A stretch of 24,199 nucleotides of DNA, taken from the IMG/VR virus record IMGVR_UViG_3300000288_000064. One strand, given 5' to 3'. Positions 521 to 12,659 of the stretch are shown here, piece after piece. The notes beneath the pieces were generated by a model, which saw only the letters and a program-made list of their open reading frames with translations, was not told the origin of the DNA and did no database searches. Every line of letters begins with the position of its first letter. The first letter of the stretch is position 1. Both the position numbers and the translations under genes were made by a program. The DNA comes from a virus (taxonomy: Duplodnaviria > Heunggongvirae > Uroviricota > Caudoviricetes).

Positions 521-1144
521 ATGACAAAACATCTTAATGTGGTTTCTTTACCACTTTCTGTGTTGATTGGTTATGAAAAGAACGCTCGCACACACTCCGT
601 GGAGCAGGTAGATCAGATTATTGCCAGCATACAGGAGTACGGATGGACTAATCCGATCCTGATAGACGAGAACAACGTTGTAATTGCTGGTCATGGTCGA
701 ATTGCTGCGGCCACTCAGTTGGGGATGGATGATGTTCCCTGCATTGTTCTGGCTGGGCTAACGGAGAATCAGAAGAAGGCATATCGTCTGGCCGACAACC
801 GTATTCCGCTGAATGCTGGTTGGGATGAAGAGTTGTTAAGCGCGGAGCTTGCAGATCTTGCGGCCGATGATTTTGCTCTGGACTCAATTGGTTTTACTCA
901 GCGCGAACTGGATAACTTATTGAGTGCGGCGGTCTACGATGACACAGAGGGTATGGATATCCCATTTGAGAAGGATGAGGCCAAATCAGGCGTAAAAGTT
1001 CAGTACCTGTCATTTGGAGGTCATAAAATCCCGGCAACGGATGAGGAAGCGGATCGTTTTGACTGCGCGGTGTCTCGTTATGTTGATGATAATGGCAGCT
1101 ATATCGGATTTGTATCCGCATTGCTGGCTGGGGAGGTGTGCTGA
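521..1144 (+). CDS. ParB-like N-terminal domain protein (ParB/sulfiredoxin fold), copy 1
   Basis: N-terminal region (YEKNARTHSVEQVDQIIASIQEYGWTNPILID...IAGHGRIAAA) matches the ParB-N box with GxGR motif that often precedes phage DNA methylases; about 100-aa acidic C-terminal extension. Stop overlaps the next start. Confidence 0.8.
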   Translation: MTKHLNVVSLPLSVLIGYEKNARTHSVEQVDQIIASIQEYGWTNPILIDENNVVIAGHGRIAAATQLGMDDVPCIVLAGLTENQKKAYRLADNRIPLNAGWDEELLSAELADLAADDFALDSIGFTQRELDNLLSAAVYDDTEGMDIPFEKDEAKSGVKVQYLSFGGHKIPATDEEADRFDCAVSRYVDDNGSYIGFVSALLAGEVC

Positions 1145-2517
1145 TGCTTCACCTCAATTACGACATAACGCACCTACGCGGCGCGGAATATAACCCGCGT
1201 TTTATCGGTGAGGATGATCTTGCGAGGCTGGCGGAAAGCGTCAGGGAGCTGGGGCTTGTGAAGCCATTGATAGTGCGCGGCGATTTGCTGGTGGCGGGAC
1301 ACCAAAGGACGAAGGCGCTACGTAAGTTGGGAATAACGCGTGCTGCGGTGTATGTGTTGCCCTGTGAAACGACGGTATACGACGAAGTACGGTTTAACCA
1401 ACTGCATAACGGAACGGATTTTGATAGCGGAGATGAGCGTTGCAGGGTGTCCGGTCTGGAAGATAAGCATGGTTTTGTTCAGGTATCGGCAAGCCAGATC
1501 TCAGGCAATATGCGCGCGAAAATGGCATATGTTCGAAAGAACATAGCGGAACTGGTTATCAAGTATGGTCCGTGGGGTGGTTGTGTTGCTACTCAGTCTG
1601 GTGAGGTTATTCACTGTGCTCAGTATGCATTAGCAGCGAAAATGACGCGCACACCGCTAACGGTGTTTGTGATCCCTGATGTTGAGAAGGAAAAATACCA
1701 AAGTTATCTGAATAAAACTTATGGTGTATTTGAGTATTCTCATCTGGAGAAAACAACATACATCCAGACGTATGCGCAGCTTATGCGGTTGCGTAATGGT
1801 GGCAGCCTGAAATCAAATCTGTATGAGTCGTTGATCCTCCCGATCGTTGCCAAGACGCCAAGAGGAATTGATTTTGGTTCGGGGCAGGGAGACTACGCGC
1901 GAATGCTCAGGGCAAAGGGATATAACCTGCATGATCTTGAGCTTTTTCGCCGTAAGGGCGCTGGAAACACTCTGGATAGGGCTGCAACAAACCGAATGAT
2001 TGATACGCTGGTGGACGACTTAAAAACGCGAGGGCGTTACGACTACGTGATTTGCGATAGCGTTTTGAACTCGGTCGATAGTGTCGAGGCTGAATGGTCC
2101 GTTCTGACGGTTCTGAAAGGCCTGTGTAAAGCTGGTGGGTCAATATTCTTTTCTGGTCGTAGCCGTGGAGAGCTGGAAACAGTCCTGAAGCAAACACAAG
2201 CGGCGAGTTCCAAAAGCCGGCTTTATTTTATTGATCATAACGGTTTTACCGCGTTGTACCGGAAGGGGCACTGGTTTTACCAGAAGTTTCACTCTGATGA
2301 TGAAGTGAAGCAGTTGTGTCGTGTACATGGTTTCAGGATTAAGCGGTCAATATTCAACTGTAATAGCTGGTATTTGCACGTCATTAACGATGATTCCCTT
2401 AGTTGGGCGAGTCTGGAGAAAGCTGTTCGTTTTGAGTTTGAGTTGCCGTTGCCTGGTGGTTCAACAATCGGACGATCTGATGATGTGCTGGCGGCTTTCC
2501 GGCCGTTGATTAAGTAG
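1144..2517 (+). CDS. fusion protein: ParB-like N-terminal domain + class I SAM-dependent methyltransferase-like domain
   Basis: N-terminus has a ParB-N box (LVKPLIVRGDLLVAGHQRTKAL). C-terminal half carries Rossmann-fold MTase motif I (GIDFGSGQGDY, about 1864..1893) and a post-II-like motif (YDYVICDSVL, about 2038..2067). Start chosen as ATG 1144 (GGGAGG 7 nt upstream, TGATG overlap); in-frame GTG at 1138 is the alternative. Confidence 0.75.
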   Translation: MLHLNYDITHLRGAEYNPRFIGEDDLARLAESVRELGLVKPLIVRGDLLVAGHQRTKALRKLGITRAAVYVLPCETTVYDEVRFNQLHNGTDFDSGDERCRVSGLEDKHGFVQVSASQISGNMRAKMAYVRKNIAELVIKYGPWGGCVATQSGEVIHCAQYALAAKMTRTPLTVFVIPDVEKEKYQSYLNKTYGVFEYSHLEKTTYIQTYAQLMRLRNGGSLKSNLYESLILPIVAKTPRGIDFGSGQGDYARMLRAKGYNLHDLELFRRKGAGNTLDRAATNRMIDTLVDDLKTRGRYDYVICDSVLNSVDSVEAEWSVLTVLKGLCKAGGSIFFSGRSRGELETVLKQTQAASSKSRLYFIDHNGFTALYRKGHWFYQKFHSDDEVKQLCRVHGFRIKRSIFNCNSWYLHVINDDSLSWASLEKAVRFEFELPLPGGSTIGRSDDVLAAFRPLIK

Positions 2518-2533
2518 TGTGTAGGAGGCGCTG

Positions 2534-3253
2534 GTGGCTGACAGAATTGAGATAAAGATGGATTTTTCTTCTCAGGATATTCAACGACAACTCCAGCGCC
2601 TTGAAGAACGCGAATTGCCGTTCGCAATGGCGCTTGCGGCAACCAGAACGGCAAAGGCTTCTCAGGCTGCGATTAAGAATGAAATTAATCGGGTATTTGA
2701 CAGGCCCACGCCGTGGATTCAGAACTCTACTTACGTTTTGGCCGCAAAGAAGAGTGATCCTACAGCCATTGTGTATGCTCGTGAATGGGGAGGAACGCCA
2801 GCCCCTGTAACGTTGACTCCGCAAATCGAAGGTGGCCAACGACAGTACAAACGCTCAGAAGGGGCGCTAAGGGCTGGTGGATATTTGCCTAACGGCTGGC
2901 AGCTTGCTCCTGGTCCCGGCGCAAAGCTGGACAAATACGGGAATATTTCGCGGGGGCAATTACAGCAGGTCTTATCTGGCCTAAGAGTTCAGCGAGATGC
3001 GCATCAAAATCGCCGTCAGGGCAAGCCTACGGAGTTTTTTGTTGTTCGACCTGGTACAAGTAACCCGCTTCAACCAGGCGTCTGGCAGCGCGTTGGGCGG
3101 CGTCCTACGTTGATCCTTACGTTTATCCAGCAACCTAACTATTCGCAGCGTCTTGATTGGCATGGCGTGGCGCTGCGTGCTGGTGAGGATGCGTTTGCTG
3201 ATGAAGTCACAAAGGCTATTGATGACATTCTTTCTAAGACCTTCTCTCGTTAA
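2534..3253 (+). CDS. hypothetical protein (239 aa), third gene of the ParB/MTase cassette
   Basis: GTG start with a perfect AGGAGG 5 nt upstream, 16 nt after the previous stop; GC-rich coding composition; Gly/Pro/Arg/Gln-rich with no motif I can recognise. Confidence 0.6.
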   Translation: MADRIEIKMDFSSQDIQRQLQRLEERELPFAMALAATRTAKASQAAIKNEINRVFDRPTPWIQNSTYVLAAKKSDPTAIVYAREWGGTPAPVTLTPQIEGGQRQYKRSEGALRAGGYLPNGWQLAPGPGAKLDKYGNISRGQLQQVLSGLRVQRDAHQNRRQGKPTEFFVVRPGTSNPLQPGVWQRVGRRPTLILTFIQQPNYSQRLDWHGVALRAGEDAFADEVTKAIDDILSKTFSR

Positions 3254-3444
3254 TCATCGTGTGGTTGATGGTGTTGTTATGCAGAGTGTATTCACTGTGT
3301 TCTGTAGCGTCGCTCGCTGGCTGTCTGTGGGGGAGCACGAGCATCGTTTCATCGTCCGGCAGAATTGGGTCCTTCTGGCCAAAAGCGTTGGATGCGGGTC
3401 ATTCGAACCCCGATATTCGGCTAGCTAAACGTGAAAAAAGTTAG

Positions 3445-3809
3445 GTTAAAAGTTGCGGTAAAAGAAATTTACTCATCTCATTGAAAAATATCGGGAAAAC
3501 GTGATTTTTTCTGTATTTGTGCTGGTAAAAAGAAAGTGGAAAATTTTCTTTTAGATCATCAAGATACGCGCAGATCTTTAACCAATGTGATGTTGTTCTG
3601 ATAAAAATCGTTATAAATCATGCAAATACATCCAATCTTTTAACCAAAACACCATCGCAAGATCCTTTTTACTTATAAAAACTTAATAAAATCAGATAAT
3701 TATGCTGGTTTGTGTGATTTTTCATGAGTAAAAAGATCGTCATTTTTCTCTTTTAGTATCAATAAGTTAAACAGTTTTCTTTAACCTGTTGTGTTATGGC
3801 GGTTAAAAA
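3445..3809. promoter_or_regulatory. AT-rich intergenic spacer, probable promoter/regulatory region for the packaging-morphogenesis operon
   Basis: The only long non-coding gap among + strand genes; several TATAAA-like and TTGAAA/TTGATA-like hexamers, but no single promoter could be pinned by eye. Confidence 0.35.
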
Positions 3810-4400
3810 ATGGCTCTAAAAATCGAATATTTACCAGTCGGTAAGTTGCTCAGATATGCCAAAAATTCACGGACTCATTCAGATGAGCAAGTTGAACAGT
3901 TGGTGAACAGTATCCGTGAGTTCGGTTTCACTAATCCTGTGCTGATCGATGAAAAGAATGAACTGATTGCGGGGCATGGGCGGCTTGCAGCAGCCGAAAT
4001 TCTGGAAATGGATAAAGTTCCGGCGATTCGGTTGAGTAACCTTTCTGAAAAACAGAAGAAGGCTTACAGGATTGCAGATAACAAGCTGGCCTTAAATGCT
4101 GGCTGGGATATGCAGCTTCTGGCCGAAGAAGTCAAAGAGTTAATGGATGATGATTTTGATATTGATCTGCTTGGGTTTAATGATGCAGAGCTTGACGAAA
4201 TGTTAAGCGATGAACAGCCGCAGGAAGAAGACGATAATTCTTCCCCTGTTGTTCAAATTAAGTACCTGGCTATTGATAAAGAACGTATTCCCGCGACGGA
4301 TATGGAAATTGCATTGTTGCTGGATGTTTATCGTCAGTACCACGACGCGCATGAAACGCATGAGGGATTTGTTCAGTATCTTGCTAATGGTTGCAAGTAA
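3810..4400 (+). CDS. ParB-like N-terminal domain protein, copy 2 (paralog of 521..1144)
   Basis: Collinear similarity to copy 1 over the whole length (YAKNSRTHSDEQVEQLVNSIREFGFTNPVLID...IAGHGRLAAA...QKKAYRIADNKLALNAGWD...IPATD). Stop overlaps the small terminase start. Confidence 0.8.
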   Translation: MALKIEYLPVGKLLRYAKNSRTHSDEQVEQLVNSIREFGFTNPVLIDEKNELIAGHGRLAAAEILEMDKVPAIRLSNLSEKQKKAYRIADNKLALNAGWDMQLLAEEVKELMDDDFDIDLLGFNDAELDEMLSDEQPQEEDDNSSPVVQIKYLAIDKERIPATDMEIALLLDVYRQYHDAHETHEGFVQYLANGCK

Positions 4401-4951
4401 TGGCCATCGTCAGTAAGTCAGAGTTTGCCCGCCGGAAAGGTATTTCTCCGGCAATGGTTACGAAGCTCTGTCGTTCCGGTCGCATTCCAGTGCTGAAAAG
4501 CGGCAAGCTGGATTTTGATAAAGCCAGTGCGGCTTATGAAGCGAGCCGACAGGTTGGTCGTGAGGTATCTGCTGAAAATGGAAAAAGAGGGCATGGGATA
4601 TCTTCGGAACAACCAGAGTTACCCGCTGATGATGCCGGATTAGCTGGTGGTACTTCCGGTGTTGCGGTGCAATTCAACAAGGCTAAGACCGCAGAAAAAA
4701 TTTATCAGGCAAAGCTGAAACGCCTTGAATTTGAAGAAAAGGAAGGCTCTCTCATCGCTAAAGATGCGGTCAGGGATGATGCATTTCTGGCAGCTAATGA
4801 ATTGCGTAGCCGCTTATTTAGTATTGCTCCAAGAGCAGCTCCCCGTTGTGAAGGCAAAACAGCCAGGGAGATCGAGCGCATTATTGAAGACGAGATTAAT
4901 TTTGCGCTTCAGGCGCTCCAGGAATCCCGATTTATTAAGCAGGAAGAATAA
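4400..4951 (+). CDS. terminase small subunit (Nu1-like architecture)
   Basis: Sits immediately upstream of the large terminase; N-terminal helix-turn-helix-like segment (SKSEFARRKGISPAMVTKLCRSGRIPV) and central coiled-coil-like region, as in lambda Nu1. ATG at 4400; the ORF track opens at an upstream TTG (4391). Confidence 0.6.
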   Translation: MAIVSKSEFARRKGISPAMVTKLCRSGRIPVLKSGKLDFDKASAAYEASRQVGREVSAENGKRGHGISSEQPELPADDAGLAGGTSGVAVQFNKAKTAEKIYQAKLKRLEFEEKEGSLIAKDAVRDDAFLAANELRSRLFSIAPRAAPRCEGKTAREIERIIEDEINFALQALQESRFIKQEE

Positions 4952-4956
4952 ACCTC

Positions 4957-6813
4957 ATGGGCGAAACAGTATGGAGCACCGCTTTTTTCCGTGCGCTTCG
5001 CCCTAAATCACGGCTAACTGTTTCCGAATGGGCTGATAAGTATCGTCATGTAGCGCCGGGAACGTCTCCAGAGCCAGGGCCGTGGCGTACAAGCCGAGTG
5101 CCATATTTGCGTGAACCAATGGATGTTATTGGTGACGCTGATACAGAAACAGTAGTGATGCAATGTAGCTCGCAAATTGGTAAATCCGAATTACAGCTAA
5201 ATGTTATGGGTTACTTTGCAGATCAGGAGCCATCTCCTCAGTTGATGATTTATCCAACGGTAGAGGCGGCTGAGGCTTTTTCAAAAGAGCGTATTGATCC
5301 GACGTTCAAATATTCCCCTGGTTTGAAACACAAGCTGCATGAAGGGAAAGAGGGGCGCGGTGCAGCCAAAAAGTCCAGCACGACTATACGTATGAAGCAT
5401 TACGCTGGTGGATATATAGCACTTGTTGGTGCTAATTCCCCAGCAGGTCTTGCATCCAGGCCAATTCGAATACTGTTAGCTGATGAGATTGATCGTTACG
5501 GTGTGACGCAGGAGGGCGACCCACTAAAACTAGGTATTCAGCGTACTACCAACTTTCATAATCGTAAGAAAGTTTTTGTTTCTACTCCTGTTTTGGAGGA
5601 AACAAGCAAAATCCACAAGTGGTTTAAGCTCTCCGATCAGCGTTACTACCATGTTCCTTGCCCATGTTGTGGCACCATGCAGGTGATGAAATGGTCGCAA
5701 GTCAGATGGGATAAGAGCGATTCAGGTGAGGCGTTACCGGAAACGGCCAGATATGAGTGCTGTGAGTGCGGCGGGATTATGCGCGGATCTGGTAAACCAG
5801 ACGTTGATTGGTTGGCGAAGGGGGTATGGATAGCTGAACATACTGGAGTTAAAGGTATTGTTGGTTTTCATATTAACAGTCTTTACTCCCCGTGGGTTGC
5901 ATTGTCAGAGCTGGTTGAAGAATTTACGGAAGCAACCAGAAACCGCGATAAAAATGGATTAATGGAGTTTATTAACCTTAAGCTGGGTGAGCCATGGAAA
6001 GAGGATGCTAAAGACGATATCGATCCTGAATACTTGTTGCAACGCAGAATAAGGTTTGAAGAGTTTTTACCAGATGATGTTTTATTGTTAAGTGCTGGTG
6101 TTGACGTACAGGACACGTATTTAGTTTGTGAATTGGTCGGTTGGGGAAAAGGTAAGGAGTCATGGGGGATAGAATATAAAATATTCCCAGGTGATCCCGC
6201 ACAAGATGTTGTCTGGAAACAACTTGATGAATACTTACTCCGTAGCTGGTCATTCCGTGACGGTCGAAAATTACAGATTTCTTCCGTTTGTATTGACTCT
6301 GGTGGGCATTTTACGACAGAGGTATATCGCTTTACTAAGCCGAGAGAATCAAGGCGAATATACTCTATCAGGGGGCGTGGTGGGGTAGGTTTACCATTTA
6401 TAGGAAAGCCAAGTAATAATAACCGTGTGGGTGCTATGTTGTTTAATTTGGGGGTTGATGATGGTAAAGGGACCATCATGGCAAGAATTAAACTACATGA
6501 TCCTGGTCCTGGTTATATGCATTTCCCATTAGATTCTGACAGAGGATATGATACCGAATACTTTAAAGGATTATTATCAGAGAAAAAAATATTTGAATAT
6601 AAAAATGGGCAGACAAAAGAAAAGTGGGTGAAAGTCTACGAGCGTAACGAGCCTCTTGATTGCCGTAACTATGCAACTGCCGCGATGGAAATTCTGAACC
6701 CTAATTTTAACTGGCTTGCCGAACAGGAAATGCGAGGTAATGTGTATGTGCAGAACTCGTCAGGTATACGTAGAAGACGCCGTAGAGTTATAAGTAAAGG
6801 CGTAACCATATAG
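4957..6813 (+). CDS. terminase large subunit, GpA family (lambda A-like)
   Basis: 618 aa; N-terminal SEWADKYRHV segment and C-terminal LDCRNYATAAMEIL segment align by eye with lambda gpA (VEWADANYY; ALDCFVYALAAL). Confidence 0.9.
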   Translation: MGETVWSTAFFRALRPKSRLTVSEWADKYRHVAPGTSPEPGPWRTSRVPYLREPMDVIGDADTETVVMQCSSQIGKSELQLNVMGYFADQEPSPQLMIYPTVEAAEAFSKERIDPTFKYSPGLKHKLHEGKEGRGAAKKSSTTIRMKHYAGGYIALVGANSPAGLASRPIRILLADEIDRYGVTQEGDPLKLGIQRTTNFHNRKKVFVSTPVLEETSKIHKWFKLSDQRYYHVPCPCCGTMQVMKWSQVRWDKSDSGEALPETARYECCECGGIMRGSGKPDVDWLAKGVWIAEHTGVKGIVGFHINSLYSPWVALSELVEEFTEATRNRDKNGLMEFINLKLGEPWKEDAKDDIDPEYLLQRRIRFEEFLPDDVLLLSAGVDVQDTYLVCELVGWGKGKESWGIEYKIFPGDPAQDVVWKQLDEYLLRSWSFRDGRKLQISSVCIDSGGHFTTEVYRFTKPRESRRIYSIRGRGGVGLPFIGKPSNNNRVGAMLFNLGVDDGKGTIMARIKLHDPGPGYMHFPLDSDRGYDTEYFKGLLSEKKIFEYKNGQTKEKWVKVYERNEPLDCRNYATAAMEILNPNFNWLAEQEMRGNVYVQNSSGIRRRRRRVISKGVTI

Positions 6814-11149: not shown

Positions 11150-11542
11150 ATGGCCAGACTGATTAAAAACATTGATACGATAAGCCACGGCTCGCTAAAA
11201 GCGGGCCGTTTGCTTAATGGGCTAATGGATAACTCCAGAATTGCCGAACTGATTGCGTCAGGACATGCTATTGCCACCGAAGAGGATGGTGATTTGGCAT
11301 CGGCTGGGGGCTATGATGCTGCTAAGTTAGCTTTTGAGCATGGATACGCATCTGCTGTTAATGATGCTGTGGACGCGGGGTTGATTACGCGAACGGAGGC
11401 GGGTAGCTGTGTATTCGAGGTTGAGTTTGAGGATGATGGCGGCAATGAGGAAATGGTTGCTGATGATTCATCTGAATCTGTAGCTACTTCTGATACCAGT
11501 AATGCGAAAAAATCAACGCAAAAAAAAGGTAATAAGAAGTAA
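11150..11542 (+). CDS. hypothetical protein (130 aa), positionally equivalent to lambda FI
   Basis: Coupled to the capsid stop; acidic C-terminal segment followed by a Lys-rich tail (KKSTQKKGNKK). No recognisable motif. Confidence 0.5.
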   Translation: MARLIKNIDTISHGSLKAGRLLNGLMDNSRIAELIASGHAIATEEDGDLASAGGYDAAKLAFEHGYASAVNDAVDAGLITRTEAGSCVFEVEFEDDGGNEEMVADDSSESVATSDTSNAKKSTQKKGNKK

Positions 11543-11886
11543 TGAACTCCTTCAAAGAGGTTATAGCGCAAGATATTTCTGCAATATTCCTCAATGAAAA
11601 AGAGTTTGCCGATACATATAACATAGACGGCAAGGATATCCTTGCCGTTATTGATACAGACCTTATTCATGAGCGGAATAAACGCTCATATGCTGAGTTT
11701 GCAGAGGGAATAAATCAGGGGCAAATAATATTATTTGTTTCAAGAAAAGATTTTCCTGTTCTCCCTGTCAAAGACCAGTCAATGAAAATCAACGGTAAAA
11801 ATTATATTGTTGATGAAGTATCAGATAATGTTGGTGTATTGGAAATAACTCTCACTGTTAATACTAACAGAGGAATGCCGATTTGA
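11542..11886 (+). CDS. putative head-tail joining protein (lambda FII-like)
   Basis: 114 aa; C-terminal pattern KINGKNYIVDEVSDNVGVLEITL resembles lambda FII (TIGEENFWVDRVSPDDGGSCHLWL); TAATG overlap upstream. Confidence 0.5.
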   Translation: MNSFKEVIAQDISAIFLNEKEFADTYNIDGKDILAVIDTDLIHERNKRSYAEFAEGINQGQIILFVSRKDFPVLPVKDQSMKINGKNYIVDEVSDNVGVLEITLTVNTNRGMPI

Positions 11887-12368
11887 TTAATCTTTTGATA
11901 GATGCAATAAAAAATCGGTTGGAACATGAGGTTTTCCATGATTTATTAGTGCAGGGGCCTCCTTATGATGAAACAGACAGCGATATTAAATTGTTTGTTC
12001 CAACAATATTTAAAGGGTACTTGCCTCCTAAATCACAACCATCTCCAGATAAACCGCCAGAATTTCCTCATGTGATTATCAGGCCCACGGAAGGAGGAAT
12101 GCAGCCTGAAACGGATGAAGTTAAGGTTAAGTTTCTTCTAGGTGGTTTTTGTGAGGACCATACTGGATATGAATGGGTAATGGCTCTTCTTGAAAGGATG
12201 ATGTTTCATTTTCAGGAGAAGCCTTTACTTGAAGAGAAATTTCTCTTTCAGGGTGATATCAGATGGCGAATGTTTGATGATCAACCATATCCATATTGGA
12301 TAACGGAAGCAACTGGAACGTGGCTAGTATTAAAGCCTCAGAATATTCAGTCTCAGGAGTTTATCTAA
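11883..12368 (+). CDS. hypothetical protein (161 aa), possible neck or tail-completion protein
   Basis: ORF with TTG start overlapping the upstream stop, AGAGGA about 9 nt upstream; assignment is positional only. Confidence 0.4.
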   Translation: MINLLIDAIKNRLEHEVFHDLLVQGPPYDETDSDIKLFVPTIFKGYLPPKSQPSPDKPPEFPHVIIRPTEGGMQPETDEVKVKFLLGGFCEDHTGYEWVMALLERMMFHFQEKPLLEEKFLFQGDIRWRMFDDQPYPYWITEATGTWLVLKPQNIQSQEFI

Positions 12369-12659
12369 ATGGCTAATAAGAAAAGTAGTAAAGAAGATAT
12401 AGAAAAGAAGGAAGATGTTGCTCAAACATTTGTATATATAGGGCCAACAATCCCTCAACTCTCAATTTTGAAGCATAAACTATTTAAGAATGGCTTATCT
12501 CCAGAGTGTGAAAAATTAATATCACATATTCCTGGTGCAAAGTGTTTGTTTGTGGCAACCAGTGATTTTTCAGATGCAGAAAAAAGACTTTCTGATAAAA
12601 CCAGTGTCGAGTATGTAATGTACTCTAGAGTTTCTTCTTCTATCATGGAGATTAAATAA
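12369..12659 (+). CDS. hypothetical protein (96 aa), low-GC, Lys/Glu/Ser-rich
   Basis: ATG-initiated ORF coupled to neighbours on both sides; no motif recognised. Confidence 0.45.
   Translation: MANKKSSKEDIEKKEDVAQTFVYIGPTIPQLSILKHKLFKNGLSPECEKLISHIPGAKCLFVATSDFSDAEKRLSDKTSVEYVMYSRVSSSIMEIK

Follow-up and report, generated by a model that had tools for sequence, protein, structure and literature searches.

Several described phage systems bring a ParB fold together with a methyltransferase or another DNA-modifying enzyme. Iyer, Zhang and Aravind predicted that the methyltransferases of 'ParB-terminase' loci modify DNA during packaging (PMC4738411). A survey by Kaljevic et al. (PNAS 2025; PMC12704722) catalogs ParB-CTPase::Methyltransf23 fusions as enriched in phages and prophages, includes a phage member of this class among 11 proteins given control mutants in the nucleoside triphosphate (NTP) pocket, and reports ATP binding by the ParB pocket for other members of the fusion class. 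In a further case the activator of a DNA thymine dioxygenase is a stand-alone phage ParB that lacks a DNA-binding domain (5mYOX176/ParB176, PMC13229309). Here we describe a locus that belongs among these systems, found in the IMG/VR virus record IMGVR_UViG_3300000288_000064, a stretch of 24,199 nucleotides (nt) that we refer to as the window. In it a stand-alone ParB-like protein (gene 1) and a ParB-methyltransferase fusion (gene 2) are encoded ahead of the terminase genes TerS and TerL. The two constitute a widespread two-protein module that is a variant of the cataloged architecture and locus type. What is new here is the strict partnership of the two genes, the natural single-chain fusions and a possible third ParB-like fold, together with the setting apart of the adjacent gene 3 as a family linked to the cohesive-end site (cos) and the assignment of cos itself.

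Comparison with the closest systems defines what is shared and what is not. The Kaljevic class (PF13489, phrog_5475) has the same domain architecture as gene 2, which matches phrog_5475, a profile labeled 'unknown function', over its full length (E 9.1e-265; residues 3–459 on profile positions 1–457 of 458). The available text of that survey covers architecture and nucleotide binding only, with no substrate and no biological role, and includes neither an obligate ParB partner, nor a degenerate second ParB-like fold, nor terminase synteny (PMC12704722). The ParB-terminase loci, for example ParB-N::N6_N4 (phrog_498, PF01555), likewise place a ParB module and a methyltransferase right before the terminase (PMC4738411). 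They differ from the present locus in that the catalytic domain of gene 2 is a generic Methyltransf_23 without a DPPY-type motif, and in that the ParB module is here additionally a separate polypeptide. For gene 1 the best functional analogy is 5mYOX176/ParB176, where a required stand-alone ParB that keeps its nucleotide-binding domain is found beside a DNA-modifying enzyme; that enzyme, however, is an Fe(II)/2-oxoglutarate dioxygenase without a ParB fold of its own, and it belongs to a hypermodification cluster and not to a terminase locus. An initial annotation made from the sequence alone had treated genes 1 to 3 as a single cassette whose architecture could not be assigned to a described system. 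That view does not hold, since the architecture is cataloged as ParB-CTPase::Methyltransf23 (PMC12704722) and the locus type as a ParB-terminase locus (PMC4738411). The description of the pair as an uncharacterized unit of a ParB and a non-canonical methyltransferase beside the terminase is borne out in that no library searched gives a tested function, and literature searches on the function of the fusion, on a ParB upstream of TerS or on the cassette of this phage-plasmid turned up catalog-level mentions only. The two genes, with protein lengths in amino acids (aa) and isoelectric points (pI), are:

521–1144, plus strand: gene 1, 207 aa, pI 4.3, stand-alone ParB/Srx-fold partner
1144–2517 (or from 1138), plus strand: gene 2, 457 aa (or 459), pI 9.1, ParB-methyltransferase fusion

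Conservation of the gene 1–gene 2 pair

Among 1.84 billion cluster representatives scanned with a profile, 308 fusion homologues reached E<=1e-30 (50%-identity clusters), and the IMG/VR set comprised 77 fusion loci in 34 clusters at 60% identity. Sixty-four of these loci carry at least 650 nt of upstream sequence and are therefore testable for the partner. In all 64 a ParB-like open reading frame (ORF) lies directly 5′ of the fusion on the same strand, most often overlapping the fusion start. The partner also precedes the fusion in one prophage each of Serratia and Bradyrhizobium, in a metagenomic GpA phage and in the Bacteroides phage BS-TP3. Conservation of gene neighborhood, which the initial annotation had proposed as a check, extends for the pair across prophages and viral loci. 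Two independent metagenomic contigs join partner and fusion in one ORF of 658/659 aa, collinear with gene 1 followed by gene 2:

L175, 442–2421: single-chain partner-fusion protein P0486, no separate ParB gene upstream
L176, 1045–3021: single-chain partner-fusion protein P0485, no separate ParB gene upstream

By the Rosetta-stone argument, such natural single-chain fusions suggest that partner and enzyme act together.

The relation to the terminase is similarly conserved. For at least 24 of the 32 lineages represented, the first large ORF downstream of the fusion encodes TerL, and these TerL proteins fall into four Pfam types (GpA, Terminase_6, TerL_ATPase/nuclease and Terminase_3). In the window the terminase lies 1.9 kb downstream of the fusion, beyond cos, which places the locus among the ParB-terminase loci. 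Because the partner is present in every testable locus and TerL follows in at least three quarters of the lineages, the conserved unit is [ParB-like][ParB-methyltransferase], directly ahead of the packaging genes. The module occurs in Pseudomonadota and Bacteroidota, and a Brochothrix phage (Bacillota) has a relative that lacks the partner. Gene 3 is not part of this unit: the three genes stay together where the fusion is at least 70% identical (L017–L024), and gene 3 is missing from the other 33 fusion lineages, so the three-gene unit of the initial annotation is a feature of this phage lineage only.

Domain anatomy of the fusion and its partner

The gene 2 protein consists of a ParB fold (residues 1–100), a ParB-like middle region of degenerate appearance (~108–200), a class I S-adenosylmethionine (SAM) methyltransferase domain (~216–415) and C-terminal helices. 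The earlier domain calls, ParB_N/phrog_620 for gene 1 and ParB_N plus Methyltransf_23 for gene 2, are upheld. Methyltransf_23 (PF13489) scores 31.5 bits against a gathering cut-off of 27; Pfam ParB_N reaches 24.3 bits, slightly below its cut-off of 26.3, and the profile of the gene 2 family matches Spo0J at E 1.5e-8. Across 45 homologues ParB Boxes I–III are invariant at N17/R19 (NPR), G52-H-Q-R55 (GHQR) and N85/Q86 (FNQxHN), and the SAM-binding motifs are invariant at D243-F-G-x-G (DFGSGxGDY), E266 and D305. Structure prediction, another of the checks proposed at the outset, yielded AlphaFold2 (AF2) models of gene 2 and of gene 3. The gene 2 model is confident and compact, with a predicted local distance difference test score (pLDDT) of 93.6 and a predicted template-modeling score (pTM) of 0.89, and Foldseek confirms the Rossmann methyltransferase fold of its C-terminal domain. 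The enzyme domains have a pI of 9.3–9.6. Both phrog_498 and the PADLOC MTase_II model match gene 2 in its ParB part only (residues 8–75); PADLOC has no other match, and since this one covers only the ParB-like N-terminal part of a type II methyltransferase model, it leads to no defense-system assignment.

The middle domain is tentatively a degenerate second ParB-like fold. In the AF2 model residues ~108–170 repeat the ParB-N pattern of strand-helix-strand-strand-helix-strand, and comparison with the ParB-N domain of the partner family gives a weak match in register (hhalign E 6e-4, probability 29%), with IHCAQY where the partner has GHGR. Comparison with the N-domain of gene 2 itself shows no similarity (hhalign probability 0.4%). 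Since only the partner-family comparison matched, and weakly, the idea of tandem ParB folds stays tentative.

Gene 1 matches phrog_620 (E 1e-73) and scores 22.9 bits against Pfam ParB_N. Its ParB N-domain carries conserved N..R, GHGR and ADN motifs, and its C-terminal half is acidic (pI 4.05). Domain searches yield ParB_N and the acidic tail only, with no DNA-binding domain detected; gene 1 is thus a stand-alone ParB encoded beside an enzyme, as in pairs of the 5mYOX/ParB type. Genes 1 and 4, the latter a second ParB-like gene located just upstream of TerS, both match residues 31–181 of phrog_498. All three ParB-bearing proteins fall short of the 58.45-bit cut-off of the partition-ParB model TIGR00180 (gene 1, 30.5 bits; gene 2, 16.4 bits; gene 4, 40.1 bits), and in the NCBIfam search of the cassette proteins the ParB/Noc matches were all below threshold.

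Gene layout and base composition

The plus-strand ORFs reported at 521–1144, 1138/1144–2517 and 2534–3253 are all present, and RefSeq annotates the same three genes on near-identical plasmids, where gene 2 begins with the ATG that corresponds to window position 1144. Downstream of the pair lie:

2534–3253, plus strand: gene 3, 239 aa, pI 10.1, basic protein of the phrog_1924 family
3254–3809, no strand: AT-rich non-coding spacer, 556 nt, read as the cos region
3397–3408, no strand: inferred 12-nt cohesive end (cosN), GGTCATTCGAAC, from the opening points of two phage records
3810–4400, plus strand: gene 4, 196 aa, pI 4.5, second ParB-like protein, paralogue of gene 1
4400–4951, plus strand: TerS, phrog_57 at E 7e-42
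4957–6813, plus strand: TerL of GpA type, GpA_ATPase E 1e-76, GpA_nuclease E 1e-84

Tight coupling of genes 1 to 3, as originally reported, is evident in their spacing. The gene 1 stop and the gene 2 ATG overlap by one base (TGATG), with GGAGG 8 nt upstream, and the GTG start of gene 3 follows the end of gene 2 by 16 nt and is preceded by AGGAGG. The base composition had been described differently. The content of guanine plus cytosine (GC) given as about 57% for the cassette is 49.4% when recomputed (48.1, 48.8 and 51.5% for genes 1, 2 and 3), and the 27–38% given for the tail genes compares with 400-nt windows there that span ~34–47%; the figure of 43% for the second ParB-like gene is correct (43.1%). 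Since TerS (48.1%) and the 520 nt 5′ of the cassette are equally GC-rich, in a window of 42.6% GC overall, the cassette is no compositional island, and the argument for a GC island acquired horizontally was dropped. The long AT-rich spacer said to follow the cassette is real: the 556-nt gap at 3254–3809 is the longest non-coding stretch, at 36.7% GC, and its lowest 400-nt window is 30.5% GC.

The cos region and gene 4

Two GenBank records of Yersinia phages of the same type are opened exactly 12 nt apart, vB_YpM_39 at 3396/3397 and vB_YpM_44 at 3408/3409, and the opening points flank GGTCATTCGAAC. This sequence sits within the best-conserved block of the spacer, AAAAGCG..GGGTCATTCG.ACCCCG, as judged against relatives with 90% and 70% fusion identity. 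Because the records open 12 nt apart and a GpA-type terminase packages from cos, 3397–3408 is likely the 12-nt cohesive end, a candidate cosN, and the AT-rich spacer is read as the cos region. On this reading the cassette occupies the extreme right end of the DNA in the virion, and the second ParB gene, TerS and TerL the left end. Five of the six TTTAACC/GGTTAAA heptamers of the 24-kb window fall at 3444–3807, in the AT-rich half of the spacer, and copies of GTTAACC type recur in the spacer of the relative with 70% fusion identity. The cluster offers candidate binding sites for TerS or for a ParB-like protein. Given the inferred cohesive end, the AT-rich remainder of the spacer, in which the cluster lies, would be the cosB-like side. 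A 15-nt direct repeat, TTGTKCTGRTAAAAA, with two exact copies in the spacer, was marginal against shuffled sequences and was dropped in favor of the conserved TTTAACC cluster. A scan of the spacer for promoters and terminators found nothing, with counts at or below the shuffle expectation.

Gene 4, on the far side of the spacer, is a paralogue of gene 1 with 47% identity over its full length (phrog_620 at E 5e-75), so two copies of one ParB family flank cos. In RefSeq coordinates it overlaps the start of TerS by 1 nt, the same geometry as between gene 1 and the fusion. The sequences most closely related to it are N-terminal parts of ParB-fused adenine DNA methyltransferases, found in ~400 phages.

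Gene 3 is a separate, cos-linked family

The initial annotation called gene 3 an orphan, yet IMG/VR contains at least 572 relatives, and the protein matches the profile phrog_1924 ('minor tail protein'; E 2.5e-97). In a synteny set of 78 diverged loci (L095–L172), 65 have a GpA-type TerL that starts a median of 712 nt downstream of the gene 3 relative, and in 7 others the contig ends within 1.5 kb. The fusion is found in none of the 78 and any ParB-like gene in only 2. In Pseudomonas phage F10 the relative is the last gene of the linear genome, past the holin, endolysin and spanin genes. From this synteny we take gene 3 to be a cos/GpA-linked gene that is independent of the methyltransferase pair, and the cassette thus joins two unrelated, merely adjacent things, a ParB-methyltransferase module and a cos-linked gene.

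The AF2 model of gene 3 (pLDDT 85) has BFVD fold matches named 'tail component' and 'HK97 gp10 family', and the gene 3 family aligns with the lambda gpZ profile at an hhalign probability of 76% (E 2.3e-5), over the N-terminal 74 columns only. Among 53 homologues, 10 match Pfam Minor_tail_Z weakly and below threshold (best E 1.3e-4). Gene 3 is probably a gpZ/gp10-like protein of virion completion or a packaging-associated protein. The partial extent of the gpZ homology and the lack of any Pfam match for the window protein itself weigh against this assignment. Foldseek against the PDB gave nothing below E 1 and a profile search of PDB sequences nothing at E<=10. With lambda gpZ (PF06763) and the HK97 gp10-like tail-completion/neck proteins gene 3 shares weak N-terminal profile similarity and the names of fold models; gpZ differs in length (192 aa against 239), and gene 3, encoded after the lysis and accessory genes and right before cos, stands outside the head-tail joining module where gpZ-type proteins are found. 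HNH endonucleases encoded next to cos, HK97 gp74 being a named example, offer another comparison. Such genes are described beside cos and terminase in cos phages (PMC3592412), and gene 3 is likewise conserved at the right genome end beside cos and terminase; the analogy is positional only, and gene 3 has no detectable nuclease motif, HNH or otherwise. A packaging role is conceivable because the synteny of gene 3 with TerL spans the physical ends of the virion DNA, and the family could have such a role instead of, or besides, that of a 'minor tail protein'. A role in cos cleavage would be pure speculation.

Replicon and neighboring genes

The window is 99% identical to circular 47–49 kb E. coli plasmids such as pMB9698_3, and 99% identical also to the Yersinia phages vB_YpM_39/41/44 and the Escherichia phage vB_EcoM-613R2. 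Plasmids of the pMB9698_3 type encode RepA and ParA together with lysis genes, a lambda-type head module and a P2-type contractile tail, and the window is therefore the late region of an E. coli phage-plasmid. Of 5,426 complete E. coli genomes, 74 (~1.4%) carry the replicon, nearly always on a plasmid, and it is also present on a few Salmonella and Klebsiella plasmids. No Rfam family or tRNA was found in the window. A neck module of four small genes, none of which is clearly a tail-completion protein, is located further downstream:

11150–12659: neck genes, matching phrog_5541 (labeled unknown), phrog_2551/82 (head closure), phrog_2581 ('virion structural protein') and phrog_4089 (labeled unknown)

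Canonical methyltransferase genes were located near the pair on this plasmid and in other contexts, where they are annotated as type I M-subunit-like, 'DNA methylase' and N6_Mtase-like:

L001, 35449–36036: DNA methyltransferase gene of MT-A70 type, ~2 kb upstream of the window start, on this plasmid
L015, 3773–4765: canonical methyltransferase gene
L016, 3948–4715: canonical methyltransferase gene
L003, 12644–13366: canonical methyltransferase gene

In the Bradyrhizobium prophage (L003, 11054–17196) the stretch between the pair and Terminase_3 contains Amidoligase_2, two GGACT/AIG2 proteins and an opposite-strand DUF6283 gene, a cluster of different accessory genes in the same pre-terminase position.

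Proposed mechanism and alternative explanations

The account that we favor, and hold tentatively at a strength somewhat short of probable, is that the two proteins are an NTP-gated pair of partner and enzyme that methylates phage DNA around the time of packaging. It starts from what is directly seen, namely the domain anatomy, the obligate pairing, the single-chain fusions, the intact NTP-pocket and SAM motifs and the terminase synteny. Genes 1 and 2 would be expressed together with the late packaging genes, and the ParB folds of the partner and of the fusion would pair in an NTP-dependent manner, which would switch on the methyltransferase or target it. The fusion would then mark replicated phage DNA shortly before or during packaging, and the methyl mark could serve as self-protection against restriction or as a signal linked to packaging. 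The interaction of partner and fusion, its gating by NTP and the identity of DNA as substrate are predictions from sequence comparison. The combination of a basic fusion (pI 9.1) and an acidic partner (pI 4.3) is consistent with this account. The nearest relatives of the gene 4 ParB module, and by paralogy of the gene 1 module, are N-termini of adenine DNA methyltransferases, and this relationship would support DNA as the substrate. The DNA-modification role put forward in the initial annotation is likewise the leading hypothesis for such loci in the literature (PMC4738411; PMC12704722).

Several observations weigh against DNA methylation as the function of the pair. The nearest sequence and structure neighbors of the gene 2 methyltransferase are enzymes acting on small molecules, tRNA and proteins (UbiG, Trm9, GNMT, METTL6). 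The (D/N/S)PP(Y/F/W) motif of amino-methyltransferases and the PC/ENV motifs of C5-methyltransferases are absent from gene 2; the segment after strand 4 reads DSVLNSVD, hence the lack of a DPPY-type motif, and the Pfam search gave no PF01555 match. The weak signal for a ParB fold in the middle domain also counts against the favored account. Canonical DNA methyltransferase genes are close to the pair in 4 of 6 contexts inspected, with BS-TP3, the Brochothrix phage and the Bradyrhizobium prophage joining this plasmid in that respect. Since they are so often nearby, the fusion is not simply the DNA methylase of the phage, which suggests that it adds to ordinary DNA methylation and does not replace it. 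The enzyme neighbors, the missing motifs and the canonical methyltransferase genes nearby argue for a different reading of the pair, which we regard as possible and yet rather unlikely. The pair would be real and the methyltransferase would act on a substrate other than DNA, with the ParB folds being an ATP-dependent switch or phosphotransfer module and no DNA clamp. Candidate substrates are a protein of packaging or of the virion (TerS, TerL, portal or the gene 1 partner), tRNA or another RNA, and a nucleotide or small molecule. ParB/Srx folds do occur in the ATP users SerK and Srx, and methyltransferase fusions bound ATP (PMC12704722). Against a non-DNA substrate stand the proximity of the ParB modules to those of true DNA methyltransferases and the basic character of the enzyme domains, and one specific protein substrate is difficult to reconcile with strict terminase adjacency across four terminase families. 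A bolder version of the pairing model would make the fusion a new kind of ParB-switch enzyme, an NTP-dependent heterodimer with its partner in which the degenerate third fold is a built-in pseudo-partner. Its non-canonical methyltransferase would place a packaging-coupled mark other than N6-methyladenine (m6A), N4-methylcytosine (m4C) or 5-methylcytosine (m5C), on another base position, on DNA ends or on the packaging machinery. Taken jointly with the proposal that gene 3 is an unrecognized cos-proximal packaging factor of lambda-type terminases, we consider this version distinctly improbable.

The position of the locus raises the question of whether the ParB-like proteins serve packaging itself. 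Genes 1 and 4 might be accessory factors, either nucleases or binders of cos or pac sites, in a role like that of the HNH endonucleases next to cos in HK97-like phages, and the methyltransferase might modulate them or the terminase. Gene 4 is coupled translationally to TerS as gene 1 is to the fusion, the module abuts the terminase, the TTTAACC cluster lies between cos and gene 4, and cos-adjacent HNH genes are an established precedent (PMC3592412). However, most GpA phages with gene 3 relatives do without a ParB-like gene, so that the GpA type of terminase does not need one, and the module serves four unrelated terminase families. The partners are moreover very acidic and have no detected DNA-binding domain, and overall we consider a packaging-accessory function quite improbable. 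Still further down the scale are two readings to which we give very little credence. One is that of the initial annotation, in which the three genes are one foreign, high-GC cassette for DNA modification or anti-defense. Their contiguity, tight spacing and common strand, and the persistence of the trio among close relatives, speak for it. It is already contradicted by the synteny data, with gene 3 missing from 33 fusion lineages and the fusion from 78 of 78 diverged gene 3 loci, and it also fails on the GC content, which is no different from that of TerS and the upstream flank, and on the structural-protein affinities of gene 3. The other, no more credible, would have the ParB-like proteins act in plasmid partition or gene silencing, as CTP switches of ParB/KorB/VirB type at sites in the AT-rich spacer. 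The replicon is indeed a plasmid prophage with RepA and ParA, the NTP motifs of the ParB folds are conserved and the spacer has repeated motifs. Yet the scores against TIGR00180 are far below its cut-off, no helix-turn-helix domain was detected, the only ParA of the plasmid is ~13 kb off beside its own small partner gene and not adjacent to these genes, and integrated prophages as well as phages that are not plasmids have the pair too.

Implications

For annotation, the consequence is that the 'cassette' should appear as three separate features, namely a two-gene module, a gene linked to cos and the cos site. ParB-fold proteins are now seen as general nucleotide-driven switches, and the pair described here, DNA methylation by gene 2 being the favored and tentative reading, would be a compact and very widespread second case of such a protein beside a DNA-modifying enzyme. 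Its reach extends to ~300 clusters at 50% identity and four terminase types, and its presence on a 47-kb E. coli phage-plasmid provides a genetic handle. If DNA is indeed marked at packaging, the long-noted synteny of the 'ParB-terminase locus' would have its explanation, and phage DNA might prove to carry a new mark with a bearing on the evasion of restriction. If the substrate is something else, the pair would represent a new use of the ParB switch.

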